Assembly: GCA_050951545.1 (NCBI GenBank)
Contig: JBMNJG010000001.1
Location: 1-64,000, forward strand
Reading direction: 5' to 3'
DNA length: 64,000 nucleotides
From: Limnochordia bacterium
Lineage (GTDB): Bacteria > Bacillota > Limnochordia > DTU080
Shown one piece after another: positions 44,849 through 64,000 of this stretch (its first letter is position 1; every line of letters starts with the position of its first letter). The position numbers and the translations under genes were made by a program. The notes beneath the pieces are model-generated. The model was not told where the DNA came from and did not search any database. It saw only the letters and a list, made by a program, of their open reading frames with translations.

Positions 44849-45044
44849 GGTCGGTGTCTCGGAGTGTCTATTTGTAGGGGATAACCCCAGAGCGGATGTT
44901 GTGGGAGCACATGAAGCCGGAATGAAGGTAGCATGGTTCCAAGCAAATCAAAGTCAAAGCTGGCCCGAGGAACTTACCTTCAGACCAGTGCACGTTGTGA
45001 GCAATGCCGGAGGCATAATTGAGATAGTTTCTCAAGCGGCGTAG
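44849..45044 (+). pseudogene. HAD hydrolase C-terminal fragment (decayed gene cassette)
   Basis: ECLFVGDNPRADVVGAHEAGMKVAW, stop immediately before an attC R'' box. Confidence 0.6.
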
Positions 45045-45047
45045 ACG

Positions 45048-45121
45048 GCCTAACAAGCGTATCCAGCGGACGAGTCAAGCCAGGTGGTTCGATTGAGACC
45101 ATCGGCCGTCGCCGCTGATAC
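45048..45121 (+). repeat. attC site, truncated (R' missing)
   Basis: GCCTAAC-AAGCGTATCCAGCGG...CCGCTGATAC, then breaks off. Confidence 0.7.
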
Positions 45122-45150
45122 TATGATGACTACATGAAAAAACCGAATGA

Positions 45151-45238
45151 CCATAACTCGCGTTCACTGGCCGGGAGCCAGGTTGGTGCCTTGAACGAAA
45201 CCGGCGACCGCCGCCGCCGATTCGCAAGAACGTTAGAC
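45151..45238 (+). repeat. attC site, degenerate left arm
   Basis: CCATAAC...CCGCCGCCGATTCGCAAGAAC-GTTAGAC. Confidence 0.65.
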
Positions 45239-45239
45239 C

Positions 45240-45606
45240 TAATTCAGTGTTGGTGCCAAACCCGATTCAGACGTAGATTTGCTGGTTATCCGGGCACGGC
45301 CTTTCGATGACGGAAGCGACCGACGCAAGGAAATGGTTCGGATATGGCGAGCCTTGGCACGATTTCCCGTAGCGAAGGACATTCTCGTATATAGGCGAGA
45401 AGAGCTCGAGCGTTGGCGAGGCTCTCGGAACCACATCATTGCAGGGGCCCTGAAAGAGGGGAAGGTTCTGTATGGAAGCATATGAGGAGGCGCGCCATCT
45501 TTTAGCCGCCGCACACAAGGACCTTCGGGCGCTCAAGGCCATGTTTGACAAGGATGAGTACCCCAGAACCCACTCGGTAGTAGGCTCCCTTGTTGATGTT
45601 ACCTGA
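45240..45606 (+). pseudogene. decayed MNT (nucleotidyltransferase)-HEPN toxin-antitoxin cassette
   Basis: KPDSDVDLLVI...ALKEGKVLYG (MNT, N-terminus lost) overlapping MEAYEEARHLLAAAHKDLRAL..YPRTHS (HEPN with deletions). Confidence 0.7.
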
Positions 45607-45623
45607 CACTGTGTGGTGAATAG

Positions 45624-45714
45624 GTCTAACAAGCGCATTCAGCGGACGGAGTGGTAAGTGGGTACCTATCGCGGTAGGTGGGTGCGCCGCCGCTTATACG
45701 CAATGACGCTAGAT
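45624..45714 (+). repeat. attC site (R' = GCTAGAT, non-canonical)
   Basis: GTCTAAC..GCATTCAGCGG...CCGCTTATACGC..GCTAGAT. Confidence 0.8.
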
Positions 45715-45774
45715 GCACATTGTTGACGGTTGGGCAACCTTCGACCAGTGTGTATCTGAGAGAGGTGATATATC

Positions 45775-46236
45775 ATGTCGCGTTTTCGCTACACTATCCG
45801 TAAGGCAGAACGCGCCGATGTTGACCAGCTTATACGCTTGTCCAAGCTCTGGGCAGTTGAAGGCTGTACGCGTGGGTATCCAGCGTTTGACAAAGGCGGT
45901 GATAGGCCCGAAAAATGGTTCACTAGCGGATACATATGGGTTGCAGAGTTGGGTGATACAATCGTAGGTTTTGTTGCTGGTGTTGCTAAAATCGGCCATG
46001 GACAGCCCTTTAATTCGGATGGAGAGCGATACCTGCATATTCATGAAGTCTATGTTGAGCCAGGTCACCGGGGTGACGGCGTAGGAAGCTGCTTAGTGGA
46101 AGCGATTTTGAGCAATGCAAAATCAGATGGGATTCAAAGATCGTTAGTGGCATCTGGCAATGTCGATTGGGAGAACACTTATCGCTTCTATGCGCGACAC
46201 GGTTTTCAGATGCTGTCGATGCAGATGTATCTTTAG
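45775..46236 (+). CDS. GNAT N-acetyltransferase cassette (copy 1)
   Basis: IHEVYVEPGHRGDGVGS, YRFYARHGF. Confidence 0.88.
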   Translation: MSRFRYTIRKAERADVDQLIRLSKLWAVEGCTRGYPAFDKGGDRPEKWFTSGYIWVAELGDTIVGFVAGVAKIGHGQPFNSDGERYLHIHEVYVEPGHRGDGVGSCLVEAILSNAKSDGIQRSLVASGNVDWENTYRFYARHGFQMLSMQMYL

Positions 46237-46275
46237 GTGCTTGTCCTATGCATTTTCACGGAGCGCTTAAGTGGC

Positions 46276-46367
46276 ATCTAACAGGCGTATTAAGCGGCCG
46301 GCGTGGTAGGTTAGGTCTCATTGGCGGTAGGCTTGCGTGCCGCAGCTTATGCGCTAGATCGTTAGGA
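46276..46367 (+). repeat. attC site
   Basis: ATCTAAC...GCAGCTTATGCGC..GTTAGGA. Confidence 0.85.
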
Positions 46368-46432
46368 GCATATGAGATTAAGATGAAGACTGCCGTTGCG
46401 GCGATGGCGCGGAGAGATCGGAGGTGTGCGAT

Positions 46433-46852
46433 GTGGAGATCACTCTGCTGCATGCCACACCCAAGGCGAAGGTTGACATTATCCTCAGGGAGGGACTAAG
46501 GGCCGCTTCGGCGTTCAACGATCTTGGGATACCAATGAGGCGGGGAGTAGTATACTGCTGGCTCCGTCGCGAGCACGACAAGATGTGGGGGAACAATACC
46601 GATTATACCTACATCGAGGTTACCGTTGACCGCTCCAGGTGCCGAGTTGCTGACATGGAGTGGAGCTCACTGGCTCTCATGTACTTGCAGGGTAACCTGA
46701 AACCAGAGCATTCCGAGGCAGCTAGCCTTCTTGCCAGGTTGTATGAAGTGACGGCTGTCTCACTGGACAACTACCGTGAGGGCATGTTCTTCACACCGGA
46801 AGTCTTGGTGTCGGGTGATGTGAGCGCCAACAAGCTCGCTCCGGTTGACTGA
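46433..46852 (+). CDS. cassette protein, putative ADP-ribosyltransferase-fold (copy 1, full length)
   Basis: LLHATP...ILREGL, GVVYC, PEVLV; GGAGG RBS before GTG. Confidence 0.55.
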   Translation: MEITLLHATPKAKVDIILREGLRAASAFNDLGIPMRRGVVYCWLRREHDKMWGNNTDYTYIEVTVDRSRCRVADMEWSSLALMYLQGNLKPEHSEAASLLARLYEVTAVSLDNYREGMFFTPEVLVSGDVSANKLAPVD

Positions 46853-46893
46853 GCGTGTCCAGTTTGCCACCGGACTCACCAGGAATGACGAAC

Positions 46894-46987
46894 TCCTAAC
46901 AGGCGCATTCAGCGGCCGGAGTGGCAGGCTGGTACTCTTGGCGGAACCGACGACCGCCGCCGCAGCTGATGCGCTAGATCGTTAGGT
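46894..46987 (+). repeat. attC site
   Basis: TCCTAAC..GCATTCAGCGG...GCAGCTGATGCGC..GTTAGGT. Confidence 0.85.
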
Positions 46988-47064
46988 GGACATGTAGATG
47001 GAGCAGAGCCTGTTGAAAATGCGTACAACGACGGCGTAGGCCAGTAGCGAGGTGCACCATGTAT

Positions 47065-48932
47065 CTTGTTTTCCGCAGCCCCTAGGATGGGCCTAGGGGT
47101 TTACCTGAACTCGTAGCAGGAGATATCTTCCAAATCGCGAATCCTTCAGAAATGCCGTAATGAAGGGACGCGTGGCGAATGGACGACATCGAAATCACGC
47201 CAGTTCATGTGGGCGCAAGCGGATTCATTGCAGCGATCTGCCGAGAACTTGGGATCGCGGGGATGATCAACCGTTCCGTGCGTTGGGATGAGAAACAGTG
47301 GAAGGTGTCGCCGGGCACCCGGGCGGTTGCTCTAATCATCAACATTTTAGTGGCGCGGCGCCCCCTTTACCGCGTATGGGAGTCTTTCGAGCGGCTTGAC
47401 CTCCCCGTTTTGTTTGACGAGCCCGTGGAATTGAATGACCTCAATGATGATAGGTTTGGACGTACGCTCGACAGGTTGCATGAGTCGGATGAGCTACGCA
47501 AGATCACCAGCTCGGTAGCGTTGGCTGCTACCAGGCGGTTGCCTTTCGGGATCAGATCCGTTCATGCCGATACGACCACCCTATCGCTGGCCGGCAGATT
47601 CGAGCCGACCGAGAGTGACTTGGCCTTTTTGGAGGAGAATCCAGATCGCTCTTTGCTGAACATCACCTACGGCCACAGCAAGGATAAGCGGCCGGATCTG
47701 AAGCAAGTCTCCTATGGGCTCGTGGTCACTAGCGAAGGCATGCCTGTCTTGGGCAACGTCAACGACGGCAACCTGAGCGACAAGGTGTGGAACAGTGAGG
47801 TTCTCGGTGAGATCGAGACGAGCTTCCTTGATCCGGGACAGATCGTGTACGTAGCTGATTCTGCCTTGATCACTACGGGTAATCTGGAACAGATGGCCGA
47901 GCAAAAGATCCGTTTCATCTCCCGGCTGCCAGGGACGTATGGCCTAGTTGATGAGCTGAAAGAGAAGGCCTGGAAGCAGGGCCGTTGGGAATTCATTGGC
48001 CGAGTTAGCCTTAGCGAAAAAGGCGCCAAGTACCGGGCGCAAAGCCACATGGATACATTAGGGGGTCGCCCCTACCGTTTCGTCGTAGTCCATTCTGACG
48101 CCCTGGAAAAGCAGAAGGGCAGAAGCCTGCAACAGGCGGTAAAGCGGGAGTCTCAGCTAATTGAGAAGGCACAGGCCAAGCTGCAGAAGCAACGCTTCGA
48201 GTGTATGGGCGACGCTCAGAAAGCCCTTGACGATTTCTGCAACGAACATCGCCGATCGCGTCACCAACTCAAAGGTCGTGTCATCGCCGAGAATGTCGTA
48301 AAGCGACCTCCGGGGCGCCCTGCCAAAGACGCCAAACCGCCAACGGTTGTCGAGTACAGCGTTGAAGTACAGGTAGTCGCACCATCGGAGACGGCACTAC
48401 GTGTCGAGCAGGAACTGGCCGGGACCTTTGTCCTCATCACTACTTTGCCGGAGGATGAATGGAGCAACACGGAGATTCTTGAGGAGTACAAGGGCCAGAC
48501 CAGCGTGGAAACCCGCTTCCGCAACCTCAAAGCCGACCCATGTATCGTGGACACCCTATACGTCAACTCATCTCGCCGGGCGGAAGCACTCGCCTACCTG
48601 TTTCTCTTGGCTTTGATTGTGGCTTCGTATATCGAAGTGCGGGTCCGCCAGGAGCTCAAAAAACGCCAAAGACCCTTTCTGGTTCCAGGGAACCGTTGGA
48701 CCGAACGCCCAACGATGAGCATCATTTTCGACATTCTCAGTGGCGTTCAGATCCTCAAACTCTGCAACGGCACAACAACTCGAAGAAGGTTGCCTTCGAA
48801 CATCGATCCGCGCGTGTACGAGCTCCTGGAACTCACGGGCCTTGATCACAGGGCCTACACCCATGTGAGCTATGCTACGTAACCCGTGGCCAAAAACCAG
48901 GGGGGGTCAGGTAGAAGGGTGCGGAAAACCAG
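47065..48932 (+). mobile_element. IS1634 family insertion sequence
   Basis: Terminal IRs CTTGTTTTCCGCAGCC and reverse complement of right end CTGGTTTTCCGCACCC (14/16); no target duplication seen. Confidence 0.85.
47179..48882 (+). CDS. IS1634 family DDE transposase
   Basis: LNDDRFGRTLD, HADTTT, YGHSKDKRPDLKQ, DGNLSD, VADSAL, YKGQ..VE..FR.LK. Confidence 0.92.
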   Translation: MDDIEITPVHVGASGFIAAICRELGIAGMINRSVRWDEKQWKVSPGTRAVALIINILVARRPLYRVWESFERLDLPVLFDEPVELNDLNDDRFGRTLDRLHESDELRKITSSVALAATRRLPFGIRSVHADTTTLSLAGRFEPTESDLAFLEENPDRSLLNITYGHSKDKRPDLKQVSYGLVVTSEGMPVLGNVNDGNLSDKVWNSEVLGEIETSFLDPGQIVYVADSALITTGNLEQMAEQKIRFISRLPGTYGLVDELKEKAWKQGRWEFIGRVSLSEKGAKYRAQSHMDTLGGRPYRFVVVHSDALEKQKGRSLQQAVKRESQLIEKAQAKLQKQRFECMGDAQKALDDFCNEHRRSRHQLKGRVIAENVVKRPPGRPAKDAKPPTVVEYSVEVQVVAPSETALRVEQELAGTFVLITTLPEDEWSNTEILEEYKGQTSVETRFRNLKADPCIVDTLYVNSSRRAEALAYLFLLALIVASYIEVRVRQELKKRQRPFLVPGNRWTERPTMSIIFDILSGVQILKLCNGTTTRRRLPSNIDPRVYELLELTGLDHRAYTHVSYAT

Positions 48933-48936
48933 TAGG

Positions 48937-49023
48937 ATGAGGGTCTTTGTGCTGAACAGGACGAAGGAGCCCATGATGCTCTGCCATCGGGCTAGGACGG
49001 GAATAGGGTCAACCCTGGAATAA
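48937..49023 (+). pseudogene. IscB/RRXRR N-terminal PLMP-like remnant (28 aa)
   Basis: MRVFVLNRTKEPMMLCHRART resembles the IscB consensus VFVLD..xxPLMPCHPARAR. Confidence 0.5.
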
Positions 49024-49095
49024 GGACGGAGGGCTCGAAGGGTCATGTTCATGCAGCCGGTGCCTAGCGGATTCGGGTGATGTGTTGCAGTAAGG

Positions 49096-49124
49096 TGGAC
49101 CTTCCTTCGTAGATAGTATACAAT
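49096..49124 (+). promoter_or_regulatory. putative intI promoter
   Basis: TGGACC-N17-TACAAT. Confidence 0.4.
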
Positions 49125-49201
49125 TGAGCATATGATTCGAGCACCATACCGTGAGGGTTCGAGCAGGGGTGGTGCTGTTGGGTTCTTCGAGTCAAGGCGA
49201 T

Positions 49202-50218
49202 ATGAGGAGACGGCAGTCGAACGAGGAAGGACGCGCTCCACAGCGGTTGGAGAGCAAACCCAAGCTTCTCGACCAGCTCCGAGAAGCCCTGCGTTCCCGA
49301 CACTACAGTCGTAGCACTGAACAGAGCTATTGCCTTTGGGTGAAGCGGTACGTATTCTTCCATGGCGTGCGTCACCCAGCTGAGATGGCGGAGCCAGAGA
49401 TCAACGCGTTCCTCAGCCATCTGGCAGTCGAGAAGAAGGTAAGCTCTTCGACACAGAACCAGGCTCTTAGCGCACTCTTGTTCTTGTACCGACATGTGCT
49501 TCACCGGCAAGTTGGCGAACTGGGAGAGGTCATTCGGGCTCGAAGGTCGCACCGACTTCCGGTGGTCATGAGCCGCGAGGAGGTTAGGGCAGTGCTGGAC
49601 AAGCTCCACGGCCAAAACTGGCTGTTGGCCTCCCTGTTGTACGGCACCGGGATGCGCGTTATGGAAACCTTAAGACTTCGAATCCAGGATATCGATTTCG
49701 CTAGTCATGAGATCGTAGTGCGGGATGGCAAGGGTTCACAGGACCGGGTAACGATGCTACCTGCGACGCTGGTGGCAGATCTGAAACGGCACTTAAGGTC
49801 GGTTAAGGCGGTCCATGAGAGCGATCTGCGCGACGGTTGGGGCCAGGTGGTATTGCCCTCTGCACTGTTGCGCAAATACCCGAATGCCGCCAGGGAATGG
49901 AGTTGGCAGTGGGTCTTTCCGCAGGCAACGCGCTGGCGGAACCATCAGACAGGCGAGCAAGGGCGTCATCATATCGATCCATCGATACTGCAGAAGGCTG
50001 TGCGAGGAGCAGTTCAGCAGGCGGGTTTGACCAAGTCGGCATCGTGCCATACCTTTCGGCATTCGTTTGCCACGCATCTTCTTGCGGATGGCTATGACAT
50101 CCGAACGGTGCAGGAGTTGCTCGGTCATAAGGATGTCAGGACGACCATGATCTATACTCATGTCCTGAATCGCGGAGGTAGGGGTGTACGAAGCCCGTTC
50201 GATGCGTTGCAGCAGTGA
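49202..50218 (+). CDS. intI: integron integrase
   Basis: Tyrosine recombinase R-K-H-R-H-Y ([25 protein letters not shown]) plus the IntI-specific insertion [33 protein letters not shown]; ORF open from 49151. Confidence 0.96.
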
Positions 50219-50375
50219 GGAGTTATGCGGAACCGCGTAAGCCGCCTCACTAGGGGGTCCGTTGGCGCAGTAACCGCCATGAGCTGGTCCTTTTGGGGCG
50301 CTTGGCACGGGCTGTTATGTGGCTACGCTGCCGTAGAATAGGCATTACGTGGAACGGTGTAAGCGCTAGTTAGGT
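50219..50375 (+). other. attI region 3' of intI; core site GTTAGGT at 50369-50375
   Basis: GTTAGGT is the exact complement of first-cassette R'' ACCTAAC (51286); no attC left arm upstream. Confidence 0.7.
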
Positions 50376-50409
50376 TGTCAATTAACTCAGATGAGAACGG
50401 GGGCGTGAA

Positions 50410-51282
50410 ATGATGAAGCTCACATACACACAACCCGAAATAATATCGCTAAAGACTCATCCGGATTTCGGTGAGAAGTGGCTTCAGGAGCGAATTGCGG
50501 AGGATCCGTCGATTCTAGGGCTTGGGGAGCTTGTTTTGAAGGATAAGGAGCGTGCTCAGCCCAACGCGGGGCGACTTGATCTATTGCTTCAAGACGCTGA
50601 AACATTCAGGAGATACGAAGTCGAAATACAGCTTGGCAAGACAGACGAGTCCCATATCATTCGAACAATTGAGTACTGGGATATTGAACGACGCCGATAC
50701 CCCCAGTATGAACATTGTGCTGTCATTGTTGCAGAAGATATCACTTCGAGATTTTTAAACGTCATAAGCCTATTCAATGGATTTATTCCCTTGATTGCGA
50801 TTCAACTACGTGCAATAGCGGTTGAGGATAAGATCGGTCTAGTATTTACCCGCGTGGTCGATGAACTACCGTTGGGCCTAACCGAAGACGATGAAATCAG
50901 TGAAGTAACTGACCGAGAGTACTGGGAGCAAAAACGAGGAACTAAACAAACGGTTGCCCTGGCCGACCGAATGCTTGAGCTTGTCCATACGTTCGCTCCT
51001 GGTTATGAACTCAAATATAACAAGTTCTATATTGGTCTCGCTCGTGACGGGCAGGCGAACAATTTTGCCGTTTTTCGACCGCAAAAAGCGGCATTGCGTT
51101 TTGAGATCTCTTTGGAGGAATCCGAAGAAGTAAGCAAGCGGTTGGAAGAGTCGGGTTTAGATGTCTTGGATTACGACCGACGTTGGCGGCGATATCGCAT
51201 TAAGCTATCCAAGTCAGACATTGACTCAAATCGCGAATTGCTGGTCGAACTACTTAAGGTTGCTTTTGAGGCTCGAGGTTGA
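50410..51282 (+). CDS. cassette 1: PD-(D/E)xK (NucS/DUF91-like) nuclease with DUF5655-like C-terminus
   Basis: E.WLQE.I..DPS.LGL, GRLDLLL, YEVEIQ motif. Confidence 0.65.
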   Translation: MMKLTYTQPEIISLKTHPDFGEKWLQERIAEDPSILGLGELVLKDKERAQPNAGRLDLLLQDAETFRRYEVEIQLGKTDESHIIRTIEYWDIERRRYPQYEHCAVIVAEDITSRFLNVISLFNGFIPLIAIQLRAIAVEDKIGLVFTRVVDELPLGLTEDDEISEVTDREYWEQKRGTKQTVALADRMLELVHTFAPGYELKYNKFYIGLARDGQANNFAVFRPQKAALRFEISLEESEEVSKRLEESGLDVLDYDRRWRRYRIKLSKSDIDSNRELLVELLKVAFEARG

Positions 51283-51285
51283 GCA

Positions 51286-51374
51286 ACCTAACAAGCGTAT
51301 CCAGCGGACGGGTGATAGTGCGCAGTTATGTTGAGGGCGAAAGCTTCCGCCGCTGATACGCAAGATCGTTGGGC
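51286..51374 (+). repeat. attC site
   Basis: ACCTAAC-AAGCGTATCCAGCGG...CCGCTGATACGC-AAGATC-GTTGGGC. Confidence 0.9.
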
Positions 51375-51424
51375 TGACCAGCCGCAACACTTGAGTGAAT
51401 GCCAGGAGAGGAGGGTTCGGTTCC

Positions 51425-51988
51425 ATGGCTGCCCCTGAGATCACGACTGTGCGCGAGCAGATAGCTTGGTCCTATGCCAACTTAGCTATGGCAGACGCTG
51501 CACTCGGCGACAGTGCAGAACGGTACGAGAGGAACCACTATGCCATCCGTAACAGGCTATATCACGGACTTATGTCAGGCAGGATGTCAATGCGTTCACT
51601 GTATCATGACGAACGGCTCAAGATGACGATGCCCCAGGCATGCTACTACTGTGGTAGCGATGATAGCCTTGCTGTCGATCATCTGATTCCTCGCATCAAA
51701 GGCGGGCGGGATGAGGCGGGAAATCTTGTATGGGCTTGTCGTTCCTGCAATAGCTCTAAGCAAGGCCGTGACATGCTCGAGTGGATGAAGCTCAAGTGCC
51801 GCTTTCCCTCTGTACTGCTTCTGAGGCGATACATTAAGGTTGTCGCCGGTCACTGTGAGCTGCATGGATGTATGGATGTCACGCTGGCTGAAGCACAACA
51901 TTTGGAGTTGCCCTTCGATTTGCGGCTTCTTCCCACTCAGTTTCCGCCATTGAACGGGCTCCAGCGATGGGTCCACCCAGCTACGTGA
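51425..51988 (+). CDS. cassette 2: HNH endonuclease
   Basis: CYYCG..DHLIP..GG..NLVWAC.SCNSSK. Confidence 0.88.
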   Translation: MAAPEITTVREQIAWSYANLAMADAALGDSAERYERNHYAIRNRLYHGLMSGRMSMRSLYHDERLKMTMPQACYYCGSDDSLAVDHLIPRIKGGRDEAGNLVWACRSCNSSKQGRDMLEWMKLKCRFPSVLLLRRYIKVVAGHCELHGCMDVTLAEAQHLELPFDLRLLPTQFPPLNGLQRWVHPAT

Positions 51989-51997
51989 ACAACGTCA

Positions 51998-52087
51998 GCC
52001 CAACAAGCGTATTCAGCAGACGGGTGGGAGTACGGTGCCTCTGACGGAACCTGTGGCCGCCGCCGCTGACACGCGAGGACGTTAGGC
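51998..52087 (+). repeat. attC site
   Basis: GCCCAAC...CCGCTGACACGC..GTTAGGC; R'' complements the upstream GTTGGGC. Confidence 0.9.
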
Positions 52088-52108
52088 CTATTGGAGGCAT
52101 GCACTCGG

Positions 52109-52807
52109 ATGCAGACCCTATATGACATCATTGTTGCCTACCAGGATCTATACGACAAGGCGCTTGATCTCTACTACGTATTCGAGGACGCGGACGTACC
52201 CGAGTTGAAGCAGAGATTGGGTGAGTTGAACAGGTTGGTGGAGGGTTTCCTCAGCATTGCGGGCCTCGAGTGGAGTGACTGTGGCAACTTGGGCAGGCAT
52301 CTGCATTTCATGGCGTACTACCTTGACCGAAATGACAAAGCCGCCAGTTACGCCGATGCCAAGGACATAGTATTCTCCGACCTTCCCACAGGGCTTAGGA
52401 AACTTATCAAGGATAACCCTGAGGAGAGCCACCTTGACGAGAGGCTGAATGCTTCGGTAATGCCGCTGGTCCGGGGGGGCTACTATGATTCGGCGATCAG
52501 GAAGGCATTCGTTGTTCTGACAGATCGGCTTAGGCGGTCGTTCGGCCCGGACGATGCACTGGACGGCGAACTGCTCGTGAACGCGGTGTTTGGAGGCAAG
52601 GGCACAGTTGACATCAGCCTTGATGACGCGACGAAGCAGGCATATAGAAACCTCTTCAGTGGTTTCTACGGTGTGTATCGTAATCGGTATGCGCACGGCG
52701 ACCCCGACACATCGCTTGCCGAGGTCAAGGCGGTCATCGAAATGACCAACAACCTGCTTCGGGAGATCGAACACATCGCATCAAGACCGGTTAGCAGCCA
52801 GGCCTAA
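52109..52807 (+). CDS. cassette 3: TIGR02391 family protein
   Basis: YDSAIRKAF.VL..RLR, DGE.LV..VF, LF.G.....RNRYAH; stop codon lies within attC R''. Confidence 0.75.
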   Translation: MQTLYDIIVAYQDLYDKALDLYYVFEDADVPELKQRLGELNRLVEGFLSIAGLEWSDCGNLGRHLHFMAYYLDRNDKAASYADAKDIVFSDLPTGLRKLIKDNPEESHLDERLNASVMPLVRGGYYDSAIRKAFVVLTDRLRRSFGPDDALDGELLVNAVFGGKGTVDISLDDATKQAYRNLFSGFYGVYRNRYAHGDPDTSLAEVKAVIEMTNNLLREIEHIASRPVSSQA

Positions 52808-52893: not shown

Positions 52894-52942
52894 AGCGAAT
52901 TGCAGACTCCTAAGCTGTGAGTCAGGGGGAGCGAACGTTGGC

Positions 52943-55831: not shown

Positions 55832-56572
55832 ATGTATCTCCATGCTGATGTTGTCACTGTGAACGGGGTTGCAGTTATTGCCGTTGCTGATCGTGAAACA
55901 GCGGGTAACCTCAAGGTGATTCGTGATTATGCCATTGATGTGGTGGGTTTCTACAACTCCTTGCTCGGCTTCTATCCACACCCATATATAGTGATCATTC
56001 CTGGCGCCGAGCCTCCAACGGGCGGTTGTCCAGTTGATACTGGCGTGATTAGAATCCATGGGTTGGGTGCTTTGGCAGATAAGAGTCCCAACTATTGGAA
56101 GTGGCTAGTGGCTCATGAGGTTGCACATATGTACTGGGGCTATTACGTTCGCGACGCTGAAAAGACAAGCTGGAGTCAGTTGGGATGGCTGACGATAGGG
56201 TTAGGAATGTATCTTGATAAGCAATTTATAGAAGCAAGAAGCATCGACTACAGGGTACACGATAGCCTGGTAGCGGCTTTCCGAAAAGCCGAGAAGGATG
56301 GACTGGAAGTTGCGTTTGGGAAAACTGACAATGAAATAAGGCGGATGAGCTTTGACTACAACACTATCGTTCTCCACGGGCGCTCCTTTGCTATTGTTGA
56401 GGAAATCGAGATGCATATAGGTAAGACTGTGTTCGACCAAGTCTTCAGAGCCGTGTTACAAGAGTATGCATATAAAGAGATCTCATTCCCATTGTTGAGA
56501 GAGTTCATTTTCAAGAGTACAGGCAAAGACATCGGTTTCATCGTTAGGGAGTACGCCGATATGGGTGTGTAG
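55832..56572 (+). CDS. cassette 8: M1-family-like zinc metallopeptidase domain
   Basis: VAHEVAHMYWG HEXXH motif; the distal Glu ligand (WL.EG) appears replaced (WLTIG). Confidence 0.65.
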   Translation: MYLHADVVTVNGVAVIAVADRETAGNLKVIRDYAIDVVGFYNSLLGFYPHPYIVIIPGAEPPTGGCPVDTGVIRIHGLGALADKSPNYWKWLVAHEVAHMYWGYYVRDAEKTSWSQLGWLTIGLGMYLDKQFIEARSIDYRVHDSLVAAFRKAEKDGLEVAFGKTDNEIRRMSFDYNTIVLHGRSFAIVEEIEMHIGKTVFDQVFRAVLQEYAYKEISFPLLREFIFKSTGKDIGFIVREYADMGV

Positions 56573-56603
56573 GAACTAGTCTGTCCGTTGTCTCGAGTCT
56601 GCC

Positions 56604-56697
56604 TCCTAACAAGCGCATGCAGCGGACGCATGGTTGGCCTGGGGGCGGTACGGTGGCTGGGTGGTGCGCCGCTGATGCGCAAGATCGATCGTTCGCC
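56604..56697 (+). repeat. attC site with GATC duplication and non-canonical R' (GTTCGCC)
   Basis: TCCTAAC..GCATGCAGCGG...CCGCTGATGCGC-AAGATCGATC-GTTCGCC. Confidence 0.75.
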
Positions 56698-57187
56698 CGA
56701 TATAGGAGATCGTGTCCATGGCTCTTGACTTGAAGGGGCTTGCACAGCGAGTTGAAGATGTACTGCCTGACCGGGTTGCCCGTGCTGCTCAGCTAACCGC
56801 ACTGGCTGATTCACTGGTATACATCAATGCCCGGAATCCATCAATCTGGCTGGTGCACGTGCTCTCGGATCGTGTTCGGTTGTTCGCAGGGCGTCTGATC
56901 GTCCTGACGCTGCAGCGCCAGAGCCTTTGGGTTACCGTGGAGGACGCCAAAGGGGTTGACGAACTCGCCGCTCTGTGTTCGTGGCAGTGGGACACAGAAT
57001 CATATCCGAGATACCGACGCCCCCCTTCTCGGAACGGATTCTACAGCCCAATGCGAGATCAAGATCAAGACTGGCAAGCAATCCAGAAGGTACACTTCGA
57101 CGTAACCGTCCAATAGTACCCACGTTGAACGGGTCATCGTGAGACCCCATACTGGGATTGAGATCACTGTATGGGGGTTGGTTCCTG

Positions 57188-57520
57188 ATGAAAAGGCCCG
57201 GGTTACGTGAACTGTGGCGTGAGCGAGTGAAGGCCTTCCGCACGAGCGGTCTCAACGGGGTCGCTTGGTGCGCCCAAGAGGGTGTTAGTAGAGATCAGCT
57301 GTACTACTGGCTGAAGAAATTCGAGAATGAACCGACCCCGGACAACGCCCCGGCGGCGGAGCCCAATGGGTGGCTTCCTGTAACCATAGACGTCGCAGAG
57401 AATCCGGGCCAGGCACAGCCTCTTACCGTTCGAATAGGCCACGCCGTCATAGAAGTGCAGTCGGGTTTCGATCAGAACTTATTTGCCGACGTAGCCAAAG
57501 CCCTGGTGGCGCTATGTTGA
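57188..57520 (+). CDS. tnpA: IS66 accessory protein TnpA
   Basis: W.ERV..F..SGL...WC..EGVS..QLYYW.KKF. Confidence 0.85.
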   Translation: MKRPGLRELWRERVKAFRTSGLNGVAWCAQEGVSRDQLYYWLKKFENEPTPDNAPAAEPNGWLPVTIDVAENPGQAQPLTVRIGHAVIEVQSGFDQNLFADVAKALVALC

Positions 57521-57867
57521 TGGACACCGGGGCGAGGAGAGTCTATCTGGCATGTGGATGCACCGATTTGCGCAAATCCATCGATGGTCTGGCGGCTTTG
57601 GTGAGTGAAGCGTTTGCGCTAGATCCGTTTGCGCCGTGTCTGTTTGTCTTCTGCAATAGACAGCGAGATAAGATCAAGATCCTTGAGTGGGATCATAATG
57701 GTTTCTGGCTTTACTACCGTCGGCTTGAACGGGGGCGTTTTCAATGGCCCAGCTCCCCGGAGGCCACGATGTCTGTGAGTCGTCGCCAACTGCAGTGGTT
57801 ACTTGATGGATTGTCGCTCGAACAGCACCAGGCTCATCCTGTTGTGAGAGCGCGCGAAGTCATCTAG
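57514..57867 (+). CDS. tnpB: IS66 accessory protein TnpB
   Basis: TDLRKSIDGL, FVFCNRQRDKIKIL.WD.NGF.L.YRRLERG.F.WP. Confidence 0.92.
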   Translation: MLMDTGARRVYLACGCTDLRKSIDGLAALVSEAFALDPFAPCLFVFCNRQRDKIKILEWDHNGFWLYYRRLERGRFQWPSSPEATMSVSRRQLQWLLDGLSLEQHQAHPVVRAREVI

Positions 57868-57949
57868 ACCGCGGCTTTTTTGCACGAACACGTCATTTTT
57901 TGCCATCCTGGTAAGAGGGAAATGGACTGGGATGGCGAAGTAAACATGC

Positions 57950-59608
57950 ATGGAAACGCCAGCTCACGCCACAAATGAGAGCCTCCGTATGCGGTGTGCC
58001 GAATTGGAGATGCTCAATCATAATCTAGAGTTGCTCAACACCGAGTTGAAGCAGCAGATCATCGAGATCAGCGACAAAACACGCTGGTTAGAGGAGCAAT
58101 TGCGCCTTGCTGTGCATCGCCGATACAGCCCTTCCAGCGAACGCTATTGTTCAGGACAAATGCTGCTTGACTTGTGCGAGGATGTGGCGTCCGCCCAGGC
58201 AGCAACTGTGCAAGCCGAGCTGGTATCCGCGGACGAGGAAGAAAAGACTACCCGTTCCCCCCGCAAATGGCGCAAACAACGCGAGGCGAAGCTCAAGAAT
58301 CTTGAGGTGGAAACGGTCGAGTACCGGTTACCCGAGCATGAATGCGTTTGCCCGTACTGCGACGGTGCTTTGCACGAGATGAGCAAAGAGATCCGGCGAG
58401 AACTGAAGATCACTCCGCCTGAGGTAAGCGTCGTTGAGCACACGTGTTATGTATATAGCTGTCGCCACTGTGAGAGCAACCATATAGAGACGCCCATTCT
58501 CACGGCACCGATGCCAGACCCTGTGATTTCAGGAAGCTTGGCTTCTCCATCGGCGCTAGCCTATATTATGTCCCAGAAATTCGTCGATGGGTTGCCGCTA
58601 TATCGCCAAGAGAAGCAGCTGCAGCGCTTTGGAGTAGAGTTGTCGCGACAAACCATGGCCAACTGGATGTTGCGCGGCGCGCGATGGCTTGATGTACTCC
58701 ATGACCGGCTGCACCATGAGTTGCTGCAACGTGATGTCCTGCATGCAGATGAGACTCATCTTCAGGTGTTGCGCGAACCCGGACGATCGGCAAAGACCAA
58801 TTCATATCTGTGGCTTTACCGGAGTAGTCGCGCCGGGCCGGCGATCATCTTGTTTGACTACCAACAGACGCGTGCGGCTGAACACCCTCGCCGATTTCTT
58901 TCAGGTTTCTCTGGCTACCTGCATGCAGATGGCTATGTAGGCTATGAAGGATTGCCTAACGTCGAGTTGGTGGGTTGCTGGGCCCATGCGCGTCGCAAAT
59001 TCGCAGAGGCGGCCAAGAGCTTGCCGCCATCATCGAAATCGAGTACTTCCGTCAAACCGGCGGCGCTTGAGGGTCTGGAACTCTGTCAGGCGCTCTTCAA
59101 AATCGAAAAGGAGCTGAAGGATCTCACGGATGAAGAACGGCATGCTGCTCGACAGGAACGTAGCCGTCCTATCGTAGAGAGATTCCGCCAGTGGTTGGAG
59201 CAGAAATCTCACTCCGTGCTGCCCAAGGGGCTCTTGGGTACTGCCGTCGGCTACTGCCTCAACCAATGGGACAAGCTAACCACTTTTCTTAAGGATGGAC
59301 GGCTAGAACTTAGCAACAACCGGGCTGAAAACAGCATCCGTCCTGTTGTGGTCGGCCGGAAGAATTGGCTATTCGCCAACACCCCCGAGGGAGCTCGGGC
59401 CAGTGCCACCATCTACAGCATCGTTGAGACGGCTAAGGAAAACGGTGTGAACCCGCTCAGTTACCTAACATACCTCTTTGAGCAGTTACCCAACCAGAAC
59501 CTTGATGACCCGGCCGTTGTAGGTGAGCTGTTGCCGTGGTCACCCACCATAAAGGCTAAGTGCCAACTCATACCCGATGATTCAAGACAAGACGCCCCTG
59601 CCAAGTAA
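57950..59608 (+). CDS. tnpC: IS66 family transposase TnpC
   Basis: CPYC zinc finger, [28 protein letters not shown]...GRKNWLF. Confidence 0.95.
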
Positions 59609-60156
59609 GGCAGGGGTTATCTGATGCTACCTCTGCTTAGTAAGGTGGCCTGATTTGACGCTTACACTTCGACTACCTTGATCGCGTGTTAGCCAGTTAC
59701 CATGCTGTCGATCCTCGCAGTGCCGCTAGGCATGAGCCCCTCATCGTGGAGTACCTAAGTATCGTTTTGGGGCGTTCCATGCCGGGCACGCAGACAGCCG
59801 TTTCGTCCGAGGAGGTTTTGGACGCTGCCAGTTACTGGGAGGGCTCCACAACTCGTGTACCAGTGAACCGGTTTGAGCGAGACCGGCGTGCGCGCGACGC
59901 GTGCGTACTTCAGCAGGGTAGTAGGTGTGCGGCATGCGGGATGGCGTTCGGTGAGCGCTATGGCTCGGAGGTAGAGGGTTTCATCCACGTTCATCATCTT
60001 GTTCCGCTTGCCGAGATACGCGATGGGTACTCCCCTAATCCTGTACGTGATCTCGTACCCGTATGCCCCAACTGCCACGCGGTGATACACGCAGGAGGAG
60101 GCACCATACGAAGCGTGGAGCAGGTGCGGGAGATGCTGAGGCGGCAGACAGAGACG

Positions 60157-60250
60157 GCCCAACAAGCGCATTCAGCGGACGGGTGATGGTGTGGGTGCCT
60201 CTGGCGGAGACGGCGACCACCGCCGCAGCCTATACGCAAGATCGTTGTAC
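60157..60250 (+). repeat. attC site
   Basis: GCCCAAC..GCATTCAGCGG...GCAGCCTATACGC..GTTGTAC. Confidence 0.85.
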
Positions 60251-60276
60251 GGACTTGGTTTGTCGGGGGTGTCGGG

Positions 60277-60768
60277 TTGGCTTCTAGGGATGAGTTCATT
60301 TACCAGTGGGAGTACAACGGGCGGACCATTACGTTTTCTTGGGTTGGGAATGTAGATGTTGTACCTAGTCGTGTATATGCCCTGGCTTTCTCTGCGGAAG
60401 GGCGAATGTTGCTCGTCGGAGGTGGACCGGACGATCCTGATTTCTGGCTCCCCGGAGGCGGGATCGAGGAAGGCGAGACTCCCGAAGAGGCCTTGATCCG
60501 CGAGCTTTCTGAAGAGGCTGCAGCGACGGTTCAAAGGATGAAAATCATAGGTGCTCAACGGGTGGATGATTCCGATGGTGCCTGCGAGTATCACGCCTTC
60601 TTTTGGTGCCGTGTGACATTGGCGGATGAGTTTATCCCTCAATATGAGGTTGTTGAGCGCCGGCTTGTTGACCCTAAATACTTCTTGGATACGTTGTTCT
60701 GGGGGCGATCCGATCCCAAGGCTGAGATGCTGTTCGAGACTGCCCTCAAGCTGGAACACGGGGCATGA
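60277..60768 (+). CDS. cassette 10: NUDIX hydrolase
   Basis: GGGIEEGETPEEALIRELSEEA Nudix box. Confidence 0.88.
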   Translation: MASRDEFIYQWEYNGRTITFSWVGNVDVVPSRVYALAFSAEGRMLLVGGGPDDPDFWLPGGGIEEGETPEEALIRELSEEAAATVQRMKIIGAQRVDDSDGACEYHAFFWCRVTLADEFIPQYEVVERRLVDPKYFLDTLFWGRSDPKAEMLFETALKLEHGA

Positions 60769-60799
60769 CATATGTGGGCCGTAACACTCGGCGGGAGCC

Positions 60800-60887
60800 G
60801 TATAACAAGCGCATCCAGCGGACGGGTCATGGCGGCTGATTCCTTCGAGACTACGACCGCCGCCGGTGGTACGCAAGATCGTTAGGC
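60800..60887 (+). repeat. attC site
   Basis: GTATAAC..GCATCCAGCGG...CCGGTGGTACGC..GTTAGGC. Confidence 0.85.
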
Positions 60888-60913
60888 CCATTCCCAGCGG
60901 AGGTGTTTGGCCA

Positions 60914-61426
60914 ATGAAGTGGTGCATTACTGAGGATCTTGAGCTTCGGTTAGTGAATGAGCTCGATGCCCTGGCGATGTCCGAAGTTACGGGCGAGGTA
61001 CCGCATGAGGAGTGCCTATCATGGATACGCACTCTTCTCGACTACCATGCCAAGGGAGAGGGCATTCCGTGTGGTATCTGGGTGAGAGGGGAGTTGGCGG
61101 GATACCTTATTCTCGAGATACACGCCAATCGCAACGGCCTGTTTCACTATGGCCTTTTGCCTGCCTTCAGGGGTCAAGGATGGGTGACGCTGGCCTGCTC
61201 ATTCATGGTTGAGTACGCGTTTAACGAGCTAGGCCTTGACGTTGTTAAGGTTGATCCACTAGCTGCCAACATGGCCTCGTGTCGAGTTGCCGAACGGATC
61301 GGCTTTAGGAGAGTTGGGACTATGACTGTTCCATCTGGGGACGGCGGCACGCTCGACATTGCGCGGTATCGGTTGACCGCGCCGGAGTGGCAACACTTAT
61401 CCGTAGCTTCAAGAAATGCCCCTTGA
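60914..61426 (+). CDS. cassette 11: RimJ/RimL-type GNAT acetyltransferase
   Basis: YGLLPAFRGQG, YAFNELGL, N.AS.RVAERIGF; GGAGG RBS. Confidence 0.85.
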   Translation: MKWCITEDLELRLVNELDALAMSEVTGEVPHEECLSWIRTLLDYHAKGEGIPCGIWVRGELAGYLILEIHANRNGLFHYGLLPAFRGQGWVTLACSFMVEYAFNELGLDVVKVDPLAANMASCRVAERIGFRRVGTMTVPSGDGGTLDIARYRLTAPEWQHLSVASRNAP

Positions 61427-61490
61427 ATGTCGGAACAGAGGCTCTGATCTCCTTACCAGGTTAGCGGTCTGCCGTTGCCATAGTCGACGG

Positions 61491-61610
61491 GCCTAACAGG
61501 CGCATTAAGCTGATGTCCGCCCAGGTTGCAGTAGCCTGCTACCCCGTGCCTCATTTGTTGCCGGCGGCAATATCGGGGGCGGCCACAGCTTCTGCACAAA
61601 ATTGCCAGGC
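61491..61610 (+). repeat. divergent 120-bp attC, R' degenerate (GCCAGGC)
   Basis: GCCTAAC..GCATTAAGCTG..CCGCCC...GGGCGG..CAGCTTCTGC..GCCAGGC. Confidence 0.65.
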
Positions 61611-61633
61611 ATTCAGAAGGGACGGCTGCTTGA

Positions 61634-62754
61634 ATGAGCGCGTTCGAGATCGAAGAGAGAGTGTTCAGGCACATCGTGGCTGAAGGTACACCCTATGAGG
61701 TTGGATCGCAGTTGGCACAGGCGATCGAGGACGATCCTGGATTGGTGGCCCGCTATTCGTCGGGGGAGCCTGAACTTGCGGGGCAAGGCTTCGGGGGGCT
61801 AAAGGGCGTCATGTCCCTATGTGACCAGTACTGCCCAAGCCTGAACGAAGGAATCTGCGGTTTTGCTGATGCGGCAGGGATCCACCCTGGTAAGGTGCCA
61901 TTCTACCAAGCGATGACCATCGCTCCGTCGAAACCTAGCCATCGAGGTTGCAGCCACATAGCGGTACTACCGTCGGCTACCGAAATCGGTCATACTCTTG
62001 TCGCCCGAACTCATGAATTCAGCCTTGTTGGCAGGACCTGTGCTTGATCGTGGCCCGCAAGACAGGAGTGCCTTCTCATCTCGGGTATTCCGATCTGCTC
62101 TTCGGTCGGAGCGATGGCATGAACGAGTATGGACTATGTGTAACCACCTCTTCTGGTGGTGACAACAGGGCCCCAGCATCGATGGGGCTCTCAGAGATCT
62201 TCATAGTTCGAGCTATCCTCGATCGTTGTAGATCAGTCGATGAAGCGCTCGCTATCCTGCAGGAGCTAACACCAGCGGGTAGTATCAACGTATCCGTCGC
62301 CGATGCAGAGGGTCGCGCGGCACTATACGAGGCCAACGGCGGCACCCACGCGGCAAGGCAGGTGGCCGCTGGAGACAGTACCGAACCGTACCTTTTCTCC
62401 ACCAATCACACCAGCCTGCCAGGCATGACTGAGTACAACGAGAACTCCAATCCAAGTATGCTCGCAAACTCAAGAGCTAGAATGTGTTTGATCAGTTCTC
62501 GCCTAGGTGCGGTGCGGCCGAAGATCACCCGAGAGACCTTACGCGGCATGCTCTCTACACATATCCCCGATGGTCTGTGTGCGCACTTCTATAGCCGCGG
62601 ATTCGGCACTGTTTTCCAGATGATTTATGACGCTTCATCGCTCAACGCGGACGTGTGCTTTGGTGCACCAACCCACAACCAGTGGCGATCCGTAAGCTTG
62701 GCTGATCCCGTTGGACTGGTAAGGGTTGTTTCCGTGTTTCCCAACAAACGGTAG
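61634..62754 (+). pseudogene. cassette 12: C45 family (acyl-CoA:6-APA acyltransferase-like) Ntn hydrolase, frameshifted near 62030
   Basis: GTPYEVG, GCSH autoproteolysis site; DGMNEYGL and TNH motifs in the second frame. Confidence 0.75.
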
Positions 62755-62828
62755 CTGCCAGGTTCTGAAGACCGCTTTACCTTTGCGCGGGGAATCTTCG
62801 CGATCTCCTTTGTGCAGTACTTGAAGAT

Positions 62829-62919
62829 GCCTAACAAGCGCATCCGGCGGACGGGCGATGATGTGGTTGCCTCCAGCGGTATCGGCGACCGCCTCCGCTG
62901 ATACGCGAGAACGTTAGGC
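62829..62919 (+). repeat. attC site
   Basis: GCCTAAC..GCATCCGGCGG...CCGCTGATACGC..GTTAGGC. Confidence 0.88.
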
Positions 62920-62940
62920 GCATCTGGAGGGGGAGCAAGT

Positions 62941-63843
62941 ATGCTGGATGATCCGTTCGGTCGCGCGAGGAGTTTCATGTACTCCCATGCGCGGCTTCTT
63001 GAGAGGCTCCTTTTCGCCGTGAAGTTCGAGGGGGCAGCACCGGTAGCTGTCGGGAGGCTCGTCTCGGCCTACCAGCACCCTGACGGCGGACTTGGCCATG
63101 CCTTGGAACCGGATGTGCGCTGTCCGGAAAGTCAACCCCTGTTTGCCGAGATCGGTCTGAGCGCGATGCATGATGCTCAGTGGCGTGACCGCGATCTCTC
63201 GCTATCGATCTGTTCGTTCCTGGAAGGAGTCAGTAACACTAAAGGGCTTGTTCCCATCCTCTTGCCGAGCGCACTCCGCTCACCACATGCTGCACACTGG
63301 ACCTCTACCGGGGAACCCGGGATCAACCCTACTGCCAGCATCTGCGGTTTGCTACATTACCAGGGCGTCGAGCATCCCTGGTTGTCGCGCGCGACTCGCA
63401 CATGCTGTGAGCTTCTTCTACAAAACCCGCCGCGCGACGCGCATTCGTTACTATGTGCGGCACGCCTTGTCGAGCACCTTCCTGACCAACAACTAGCCGC
63501 GGATCTGGCCGACCGAATCGCCATGGCACTCCCTGACGCCCGTTTCTTTGTCTCGTCAGCACCTGTTACCACGTACGGGCTGACCCCGTTGCACTTTGCG
63601 CCATCTCCGGCGTCACCGTTGCGGAGGCTGTTCACGCGGGAGCAGATGGAAGGACATCTGGCGGATCTCATGGTAAGACAACAGGAAGACGGTGGTTGGC
63701 CGATAAGCTGGGATCCACCGGGATCGGCGTCCCGGAGCGAATGGAGAGGCAAGTGGACGCTTGAGGCGCTCTCGGTTCTTGTGGCCTACGGACGAATCAC
63801 AAACGCTCACTTGACACTCGAACACGAAAATGGACACGCCTAA
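62941..63843 (+). CDS. cassette 13: prenyltransferase/squalene-cyclase repeat (alpha-alpha toroid) protein
   Basis: ARLLER, YQHPDGGLGHALEPD.R.P.SQP, QQEDGGW.I.W; stop codon in attC. Confidence 0.7.
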   Translation: MLDDPFGRARSFMYSHARLLERLLFAVKFEGAAPVAVGRLVSAYQHPDGGLGHALEPDVRCPESQPLFAEIGLSAMHDAQWRDRDLSLSICSFLEGVSNTKGLVPILLPSALRSPHAAHWTSTGEPGINPTASICGLLHYQGVEHPWLSRATRTCCELLLQNPPRDAHSLLCAARLVEHLPDQQLAADLADRIAMALPDARFFVSSAPVTTYGLTPLHFAPSPASPLRRLFTREQMEGHLADLMVRQQEDGGWPISWDPPGSASRSEWRGKWTLEALSVLVAYGRITNAHLTLEHENGHA

Positions 63844-63926
63844 CAAGCGTATCCAGGGGACGGGAGTCGGCGGGCGGATCCGTTGAGAGTGGAGTCCGCC
63901 GCCGCTGGTACGCAAGGACGTTAGAC
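63838..63926 (+). repeat. attC site
   Basis: GCCTAAC-AAGCGTATCCAG...CCGCTGGTACGC..GTTAGAC. Confidence 0.88.
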
Positions 63927-64000
63927 AGACTTGCGCTGGTAGCGCCAACTGGTTCCTAGACCTGCAGGTCAGAGGGGAGACATCTTGCGTGAGAGAACGA

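Follow-up and report, generated by a model that had tools for sequence, protein, structure and literature searches.

Evidence for a complete inverted-integrase integron in the chromosome of an anaerobic Limnochordia bacterium

Chromosomal integrons of the inverted-integrase type were reportedly first described by Coleman et al. in 2004, in Treponema denticola. A literature search on "inverted integron" led us only to PMC4889954, passages of which discuss the inverted-integrase group and give the Firmicutes as lacking any complete integron in 2016. According to passages of the IntegronFinder 2.0 report (PMC9024848), the only complete integron of Firmicutes is that of Limnochorda pilosa, and rare cases of this sort "may represent recent acquisitions"; beyond those passages, a search on integrons of Limnochordia or Limnochorda found only antibiotic resistance gene (ARG) surveys. 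In this study, we analyzed an element in a stretch of 64,000 nucleotides (hereafter the window), which comprises the first 64000 bases of contig C1 (JBMNJG010000001.1; 65015 bp) of a 3.64-Mb genome assembled in 16 contigs with a GC content of about 57%. An earlier note, made from the letters alone, had presented this element as a large inverted integron of an apparent Bacillota genome, and its novelty is smaller than was claimed there, since a Limnochordia integron (L. pilosa, in the passages of PMC9024848) and the inverted layout had already been published. We are nonetheless highly confident that the integron in the window is complete, chromosomal, and of the inverted-integrase type, and that its host is an anaerobic Limnochordia (Bacillota) bacterium.

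The integrase gene, intI, is intact and lies at 49151-50218 on the + strand, with the ATG at 49199 as a possible alternative start, and it is the sole intI that tblastn detected in the 16 contigs. Its product scored 476.6 bits against the TIGR02249 "integron integrase" model (cut-off 265), and failed the XerC and XerD models with 147 and 142 bits (cut-offs of about 330). Residues 40-351 aligned gap-free to residues 6-318 of VchIntIA (PDB 2a3v, E 1e-84), while Xer structures matched only to about residue 217 and then again from about residue 277; this interruption shows that the integron-specific segment is present. The blocks conserved with respect to 2a3v include one starting GMRv as well as IYTHV, and the conserved blocks presumably hold the catalytic residues of tyrosine recombinases (R, K, H-x-x-R, H, and Y). 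As the reading frame is also open, without a stop codon, the model score, the gapless alignment, and the frame together bear out the intact IntI with its integron-specific insertion that had been proposed from the letters. In contigs of all four runs compared, a joint from 49481 to 49742 was found inside intI, with sides of 30-34 nt; the samples concerned could contain a related intI or an allele that has diverged. Nothing pointed to SOS control of intI: matches to the Gram-positive LexA (Cheo) box, in the form that we take to be its motif, numbered 29 in the window at up to two mismatches, compared with 26.3 expected, and none fell within 48933-49150.

The attC sites of the element belong to a single family. 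A repeat search returned 17 copies of the 5' half and 16 copies of the 3' half, and a covariance model (R1) was built from 13 full-length copies, with the structure read from their alignment, and run over the whole genome. At E ≤0.01, R1 produced 26 matches, of which 18 were located at 45048-63926, all on the + strand, and eight in the other 3.62 Mb. The model tells strands apart, since it gave no match on the - strand anywhere in the genome. The clustering of matches within 45048-63926 is far from chance, and their number reproduces the 18 attC-like sites counted in the earlier note. Thirteen sites span 88-94 bp, and the exceptions to this form are a composite site (45048-45238), a 57-bp hybrid (54536-54592), a 120-bp site (61491-61610), and a site with a degenerate R' box (56604-56693). 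Mean column identity over the 13 aligned full-length sites was 72%, and their + strand consensus, RYYYAAC-AAGCGYAT-Y-CAGCGG-A-CGG ... CCG-CCGCTG-ATRCGC-AAGATC-GTTRRRY, with a variable loop between the two halves, agrees with the one proposed before. The two extrahelical bases had been given as C and A. On the one hand, A is the commonest top-strand base at the second unpaired position (column 23: A in 9/13, C in 3/13, G in 1/13). On the other hand, C is only partly right at the first (column 16), where T occurs in 7/13, C in 5/13, and G in 1/13. In the alignment, 86.7% of cells were paired, as opposed to 24-45% when the partner column was slid by one to three positions. When the bottom strands of 15 sites were folded as DNA, we read from the dot-bracket strings an outer L stem for 12 and an R-box stem for 8, and the bulges on the 3' arm were of a single base each. 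A custom attC scanner based on AAC...GTT pairs and folding was also tried; it gave 37 candidates, five of which passed the stem filter, missed most of the true sites, and was dropped for R1.

The eight same-family matches outside the window form three clusters, C13:23125-42758 (five matches) and C4:718-2939 and C4:55880-55970 (three matches on C4), all on the + strand and without intI nearby; none were found elsewhere in the genome or at positions 1-45047 of the window. These may be either integrase-less clusters or detached parts of an array. Contig C4 begins inside an attC cluster. When a continuation of the array was sought, the end of C1 had no suffix-prefix overlap of ≥12 nt with the end of any contig, and the last ORF (open reading frame) of C1 was not continued by the first one of C4.

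On the + strand the order is intI, a candidate attI, and 13 attC sites. With intI ending at 50218, the core of the candidate attI at 50369-50375, and then the array, all on one strand, the reverse orientation proposed for this element stands. We take 50219-50375 (+) as the candidate attI region, an extent that is provisional, with the core AAGCGCTA-GTTAGGT, in which GTTAGGT (50369-50375) would be the R' box. These seven bases, 150 nt past the intI stop, are the exact complement (7/7) of ACCTAAC, the R'' box of the attC of the first cassette. The core TAAGC-NN-TAGTTRG recurs 150-240 nt past the intI stop in three of the four integrons of relatives described below (L092, L093, and L095), and was not seen within the stretch examined of L094, a degraded copy. 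Integron exchange falls between the G and the TT of R'. Because of this, the last six bases of each R' belong to the following cassette and should complement the R'' of that cassette. Of 16 comparisons, 12 showed closer complementarity of R'' to the R' of the site before it than to that of its own site, two were ties, and two showed the opposite; two of the 12 are duplicated sites, which leaves an independent count of 10/14. Such an offset is what integrase-mediated cassette exchange at G|TT predicts, and we read it as the historical footprint of that exchange.

At least 13 cassettes lie downstream of intI, and the array continues to the contig end at 65015, so that the contig ends inside it. 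The cassettes measure 515-1309 bp, with one + strand ORF per unit that ends between 29 nt inside and 75 nt before the attC. The first four (50376-54012, +) each hold one + strand ORF ending within 29 nt of the attC start, either before it or just overlapping, and their attC sites scored 79.9-83.2 bits with R1. They comprise cassette 1 (ORF 50410-51282, no family match; attC 51286-51374), cassette 2 (HNH ORF 51395-51988; attC 51998-52087), cassette 3 (Hypoth_Ymh ORF 52091-52807; attC 52802-52893), and cassette 4 (alpha/beta hydrolase ORF 52943-53893; attC 53922-54012), all on the + strand. Cassette 5 (54013-54592, +) encodes a P-loop kinase-like protein (54044-54541; PF13671 AAA_33, E 2e-10) and ends in the hybrid attC (48.4 bits), the last 27 nt of which are identical to the 3' end of the attC at 45624-45714. 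Cassettes 6-8 (54593-56693, +; attC sites of 73.0-79.9 bits) carry the second copy of a GNAT gene (54653-55114; attC 55154-55245), an ORF at 55302-55625 (attC 55667-55760), and a peptidase-M1-like ORF (55832-56572) followed by the attC with the degenerate R'. In runs X1 and X9, four bases of that R' are absent, namely the GATC repeat at 56683-56686. The remaining cassettes are likewise on the + strand, with attC sites (60157-63926) of 24.5-89.8 bits: cassette 9 has an HNH-type ORF in two pieces (56712-57090 and 59663-60186; attC 60157-60250), cassette 10 a NUDIX gene (60277-60768; attC 60800-60887), cassette 11 a GNAT gene (60866-61426) with the divergent 120-bp attC, cassette 12 an ORF (61634-62047) and an AAT-family acyltransferase gene (62044-62754; attC 62829-62919), and cassette 13 an ORF without a family match (62941-63843; attC 63838-63926). 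Taken together, the cassette products include three GNAT proteins (two of them copies of one gene), two HNH proteins, and one each of the NUDIX, alpha/beta hydrolase, P-loop kinase-like, peptidase-M1-like, AAT-family acyltransferase, and Hypoth_Ymh types, and several ORFs match no family. No resistance cassette was recognized, as no cassette ORF scored above a Pfam resistance-family cut-off. The P-loop ORF matched the chloramphenicol-phosphotransferase-like family weakly (PF07931, 22.8 bits, cut-off 22) and scored 359.7 bits with the NF011946 equivalog model, under its cut-off of 435.

The earlier note was right that intI faces the array and points in the same direction, and wrong in placing intI at the edge of the array: five R1 matches (four sites) lie upstream of the gene at 45048-46987, and 13 downstream. 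intI is thus flanked on both sides by co-oriented attC sites, across an insertion sequence (IS), an arrangement that the note had missed. The left end of the upstream cluster is truncated, since its first feature is a C-terminal fragment, 67 codons long, of a HAD-type hydrolase ORF (44841-45044, +; PF13242 Hydrolase_like, E 4.9e-08, profile positions 22-71 of 75 only) directly after a fucosidase gene. Next on the + strand comes the composite attC, in which about 40 unrelated bases stand between two attC-resembling parts hit separately by R1 (5' part 45048-45130, 33.0 bits; 3' part 45151-45238, 39.2 bits). It is followed by a 91-bp attC with R' GCTAGAT (45624-45714, 87.4 bits), a GNAT acetyltransferase cassette gene (45775-46236; PF13508/PF00583, E about 1e-14), a 92-bp attC identical to the one at 55154-55245 (46276-46367, 78.0 bits), a 142-aa ORF without a Pfam match (46424-46852), whose downstream copy (55302-55625, 107 aa) is 105 bp shorter, a 94-bp attC (46894-46987, 86.0 bits), and the start of a cassette (46988-47064) that matches 55761-55839 and is cut by the IS just past ATGTAT. 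Much of this cluster is duplicated in the array, as the block 45688-47066 recurs at 54566-55839 with 100% identity over 300 nt, 97% over 232 nt, and one 105-bp difference; in run X1 its depth is about twice that of the flank (21.7 versus 10.5). The left end of the repeat lies inside an attC loop, giving the 57-bp hybrid at 54536, so that the duplication cannot be put down to a clean action of the integrase.

The IS between the upstream sites and intI measures 1868 bp (47065-48932, +), encodes a 567-aa transposase (47179-48882; PF14104 DUF4277 and PF01609 DDE_Tnp_1), and is bounded by 16-nt terminal inverted repeats (47065-47080 and 48917-48932). It has four copies in the genome at 98-99% identity. 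Two other complete copies, on C10 and C2, carry 6-bp target duplications (ATACAC and ATCAAG), and the copy in the window, flanked by ATGTAT and TAGGAT, carries none. This absence marks it as a rearrangement junction, and points to a rearrangement, or possibly an assembly join, behind the upstream cluster. Most likely, two IS copies, one in a cassette and one upstream of intI, recombined with loss of the intervening DNA. The orphan partner junctions (ATGTAT after an IS end, or TAGGAT before one) were found at the ends of none of the 16 contigs. The four upstream sites would then be a displaced piece of the array, joined to the intI side through the IS. A relative with a complete genome (G030) has two co-oriented integrons 88 kb apart, a pair that illustrates how one array may end up upstream of a second intI.

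A second element, of the IS66 family, interrupts the HNH ORF of cassette 9 (57091-59662, +; PF05717 TnpB_IS66, and PF03050 DDE_Tnp_IS66 with E 9e-103). Contigs of four other samples (X1, X2, X9, and X5) contain the empty site, that is, a joint from 57090 to 59663 with an 11-nt overlap, which indicates that this damage is recent. A partial IS66-family copy, 98% identical to 57098-58586, was also observed near a contig end at C7:676216-678338, and the final 644 nt of the 1868-bp IS come immediately after it, as if one IS had inserted into the other. Populations differ, from one another or internally, in the content of the array: a 1765-nt contig of run X9 links the attI side (to 50374) with 51290-51340 and then with 52863-53901, and a second X9 contig has cassette 1 in the form found in the window. 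The joints in X9 fall inside attC loops and thus do not prove integrase activity. Three further joints (45652 to 56667, 45653 to 46957, and 53948 to 56667) were considered as deletions and rejected; they have 30-36 other letters between their sides and were read as other members of the attC family.

The host was placed by two proteins. The best named match of RpoB, encoded on contig C4, was "Limnochordia bacterium" at 93%, with Limnochordia and Firmicutes names next at 79-85%. HydG, encoded in the window, also had "Limnochordia bacterium" as its best named match (78%), and at 60-65% it matched mostly Bacillota names (Desulfofundulus, Clostridia, Peptococcaceae, and others) as well as Syntrophorhabdus and a metagenome-assembled genome (MAG) of Deltaproteobacteria. 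Judged from these matches, the host belongs to the class Limnochordia, in keeping with the anaerobic Bacillota host proposed before. Contig C1 is tied to the rest of the genome by the IS copies and the attC family that it has in common with other contigs. A chimeric join at about 44.8 kb had been named as a possible objection, and the contig proved not to be chimeric there, as the junction between the fucosidase gene and the array (44001 to 45623-45717) is bridged by contigs of four runs from four studies. The element is a sedentary chromosomal integron, without any link to a transposon or plasmid backbone.

Next we compared the locus with those of relatives in a phylum sample of 401 genomes and a nearer sample of 41 class relatives, each count including this genome. 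TIGR02249 was exceeded in only 3/401 phylum genomes, which supports the statement that integrons are rare in Bacillota, and in 4/41 nearer genomes, namely this one, G003 (same family), G009 (same order), and G030 (same class, with two copies). Two genomes of the same genus had no intI. In another class of the phylum sample, an IntI match over the cut-off was observed at G172:C123:3188-4054 (375.2 bits, model positions 2-289). The four other Limnochordia intI copies have R1 matches only downstream, co-oriented, and none upstream: 10 in G009, 11 plus 2-3 in G030 (2-3 beside the intact copy), and three in G003. Their scores range from 38.9 to 83.8 bits, except for one of 27.7 bits in G003 and one of 13.7 bits (E 0.19) in G030; in any other group, R1 reached at most 56.1 bits. 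The nearest IntI is that of G003, with 77.6% identity over the tblastn match, 83% over 316 tree columns, and a branch support of 100. Identity to the G009 and G030 proteins was 63-69%, and to proteins from Nitrospirota, Omnitrophota, and Thermodesulfobacteriota MAGs 69-71%, within homologues outside the class that span 55-71% in MAGs of many phyla. No shared cassettes or flanking genes were detected when four loci of relatives were compared with the contig by tblastx, which returned only intI and one attC-level match, and a DNA search with 40300-44800 in five genomes of the family gave single-gene matches of 70-71% in two of the five and no shared neighborhood.

Among 80 named loci of IntI relatives, R1 matches (E<0.01) were downstream and co-oriented (inverted) in 19, upstream on the other strand (classical) in 8, and absent in 53; as R1 is biased towards this attC family, the first two counts are lower bounds that may favor near relatives. 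These loci belong to many phyla, and the statement that the inverted layout is known mainly from spirochaetes did not hold. A quick maximum-likelihood tree of IntI was computed with 86 rows, in which 53 of the 80 named loci have no layout label. The window IntI grouped with inverted-type integrases, a placement suggested as a check in the earlier note, and the inverted label needs a single change on the tree (0/500 shuffles as low), with a branch support of only 58. Every locus with R1 matches in this part of the tree is of the inverted type. Classical loci fall in a derived part together with Pseudomonadota and Verrucomicrobiota, and L081, a MAG locus labelled Treponema, sits close to the base. 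Constraining the five Limnochordia IntI sequences together raised the log-likelihood (lnL) by 12.3 relative to the free quick search (p-AU 0.71), so that a single Limnochordia clade is allowed by the alignment. Five contigs of MAGs labelled Coriobacteriia (Actinomycetota), L021 (1.06 Mb), L022, L025 (503 kb), L026, and L032, encode IntI proteins 62-68% identical to that of the window and have co-oriented, downstream matches of the same attC family (R1 36-56 bits). By the R1 model these would be complete inverted integrons; passages of PMC9024848 report complete genomes of Actinobacteria as lacking complete integrons.

The proposed mode of action follows from this layout. IntI would be transcribed towards attI, about 150 nt past its stop codon, behind which the cassettes, single-gene units that have no promoter and terminate in an attC of about 90 bp, would be stacked on the same strand. 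By analogy with the established integron mechanism, the bottom strand of attC would form a hairpin in which the R and L boxes pair and two bases bulge out, and IntI would recombine the folded site with attI at G|TT, an exchange by which new cassettes would enter next to intI. Expression of the cassettes may occur by read-through from intI, as the layout suggests. On the evidence of the sequence, we consider the integron probably functional or recently functional.

Several results weigh against this interpretation. R1 was trained on the window's own sites. Covariation in the attC stem was not above that of column shuffles (85 to 125 of 500 reached the observed values, on five measures), because the family is nearly uniform, and single-site folding energies were unremarkable compared with shuffles (z < -1.5 in 7/15, > 0 in 5/15). 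No sigma-70-like promoter was found between the intI stop (50218) and the start of cassette 1 (50410), the sigma-70-like candidate before intI (49096-49124) was within chance (3 found versus 1.4 expected), and so was the result of the promoter and terminator scan. Given that palindromic repeat families are common in bacterial genomes and that the single-site folds are unexceptional, the locus could be imagined as a Xer-type recombinase beside unrelated palindromic repeats, an idea to which we give next to no weight. The integrase exceeds the cut-off of the curated integron model by 210 bits and fails those of XerC and XerD, the sites are bounded by RYYYAAC/GTTRRRY, keep to one strand, and come with one ORF per unit, and R'' and R' show the offset complementarity that G|TT exchange predicts; the integrase models, this complementarity, and the distribution of R1 matches effectively refute such an identity. 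More worth considering, and still unlikely, is a decaying relic, in which the integrase or the sites are dead and the array changes by IS activity, homologous recombination, and slippage. This would account for the two IS elements inside the element, for the composite and hybrid sites and the degenerate R', and for the fact that the hybrid at 54536 and the array variants of other samples join within attC loops and not at G|TT, and so are not IntI-type events. In addition, intI is degraded in two of the five Limnochordia copies: that of G003 (L095) has an in-frame TGA aligned with an AGG (Arg) codon of the window in the KDVRTT block, and the second copy of G030 (L094) is truncated and frame-shifted. 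A relic is difficult to reconcile, however, with an open intI frame in which all blocks are conserved with respect to 2a3v, with 13/18 full-length sites, and with perfect complementarity between attI and the first cassette, and the empty IS66 site in other samples makes at least that damage recent. We therefore keep to an integron that probably works or did so recently.

The arrangement upstream of intI and the age of the association with the host call for similar caution. It is improbable, in about the same measure as a relic, that the contig was mis-joined through the 1.9-kb IS, and that the upstream attC cluster is a separate, integrase-less cluster beside the fucosidase gene. A mis-join would fit the four nearly identical IS copies and the lack of a target duplication at this one, as well as the loose ends at about 47062-47065 and 48932-48933, which carry flanks unlike those of the window, as IS copies at other loci would. 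No bridge across the IS junctions (47064/47065 or 48932/48933) was found among the contigs listed, which is weak evidence, and the assembly traverses both other complete IS copies, with their duplications, without disruption, while partner junctions are absent from the contig ends. A recombination between IS copies thus remains our preferred explanation of the two-sided array. As to age, a recent horizontal arrival in this genome, as opposed to long-term residence in Limnochordia, seems to us rather doubtful, if less so than a mis-join. In its favor, IntI is about as close to the Nitrospirota, Omnitrophota, and Thermodesulfobacteriota proteins as to those of G009 and G030, the relatives' loci have neither synteny nor cassettes in common with this one, both same-genus genomes lack intI, and the passages of PMC9024848 suggest recent acquisition for the rare cases. 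Against it stand the nearest IntI in a genome of the same family, the better fit of a Limnochordia-only clade than of the free tree, the higher R1 scores in Limnochordia than in any other group, the shared attI core, and an array GC content (0.51-0.58) near that of the flank (0.54-0.63). More probably, the element is part of an integron lineage common to Limnochordia. We propose tentatively, and with some way to go before the balance tips in its favor, that Limnochordia is a long-term host with an old integron lineage of its own, defined by an IntI clade, the attI core TAAGC-NN-TAGTTRG, and the attC family of about 90 bp, and kept across relatives at the family, order, and class levels; the window would then show this lineage remodelled by IS elements, with a block duplicated and moved upstream of intI and with variants between digester populations. 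If true, long-term residence would run against the reading of such cases as recent acquisitions in the passages of PMC9024848.

To the left of the array lie 44 kb of ordinary chromosomal genes, including those for HydG and a sigma factor, and ending with the fucosidase gene (43545-44789; PF01120, E 2e-65). Two cobalamin riboswitches (RF00174) at 21966-22154 (+, 111.9 bits) and 28975-29178 (-, 106.6 bits) were the only matches in an Rfam scan of the window; Rfam holds no attC family. A 770-aa ORF (36473-38785) matched reductive dehalogenase and QueG models weakly (71 and 49 bits), far under their cut-offs. The stretch 44300-54200 is present, with at least half of the sampled words, in 20 runs from 17 studies of anaerobic digester, bioreactor, landfill, and sludge metagenomes.

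Integrons are reported to be nearly absent from Gram-positive phyla, and the window provides a second, larger, and well-documented case from Limnochordia. It leaves the knowledge of how integrons work unchanged. Two points are worth keeping: the support for an integron lineage specific to the class (attC family, attI core, and allowed IntI clade) and that for a two-sided arrangement made by an IS. Given the 4/41 class relatives with an integrase as opposed to 3/401 in the phylum sample, Limnochordia is the group in which to study what enables integrons to persist in Bacillota.

Among known systems, class 1 mobile integrons have IntI, attI, and attC-bounded cassettes in common with the window. 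The window integron differs from them in its opposite orientation, in not being on a transposon or plasmid, and in having no recognized resistance cassette. The Vibrio cholerae superintegron is likewise a sedentary array on a chromosome, its attC sites forming a homogeneous family, and VchIntIA aligns with the IntI of the window end to end (E 1e-84), but its array is far larger and its attC consensus different. The orientation of Vibrio integrons is the classical, divergent one. From the Treponema type the window differs in host phylum, and its IntI is only 60% identical to the protein of L081, a locus without an R1 match. The Limnochorda pilosa integron is likewise a complete integron, in the same host class, in a phylum where these are very rare; the window differs from it in family, genus, and metagenome origin, and the comparison extends to those features, as the passages of PMC9024848 give neither orientation nor site count. 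The class relatives G003, G009, and G030 have the same layout and attC family as the window, as well as the attI core in three of their four intI copies. Compared with the 2-3 sites beside the intact intI of G030, the array of the window is larger, and it has attC sites on both sides of intI.

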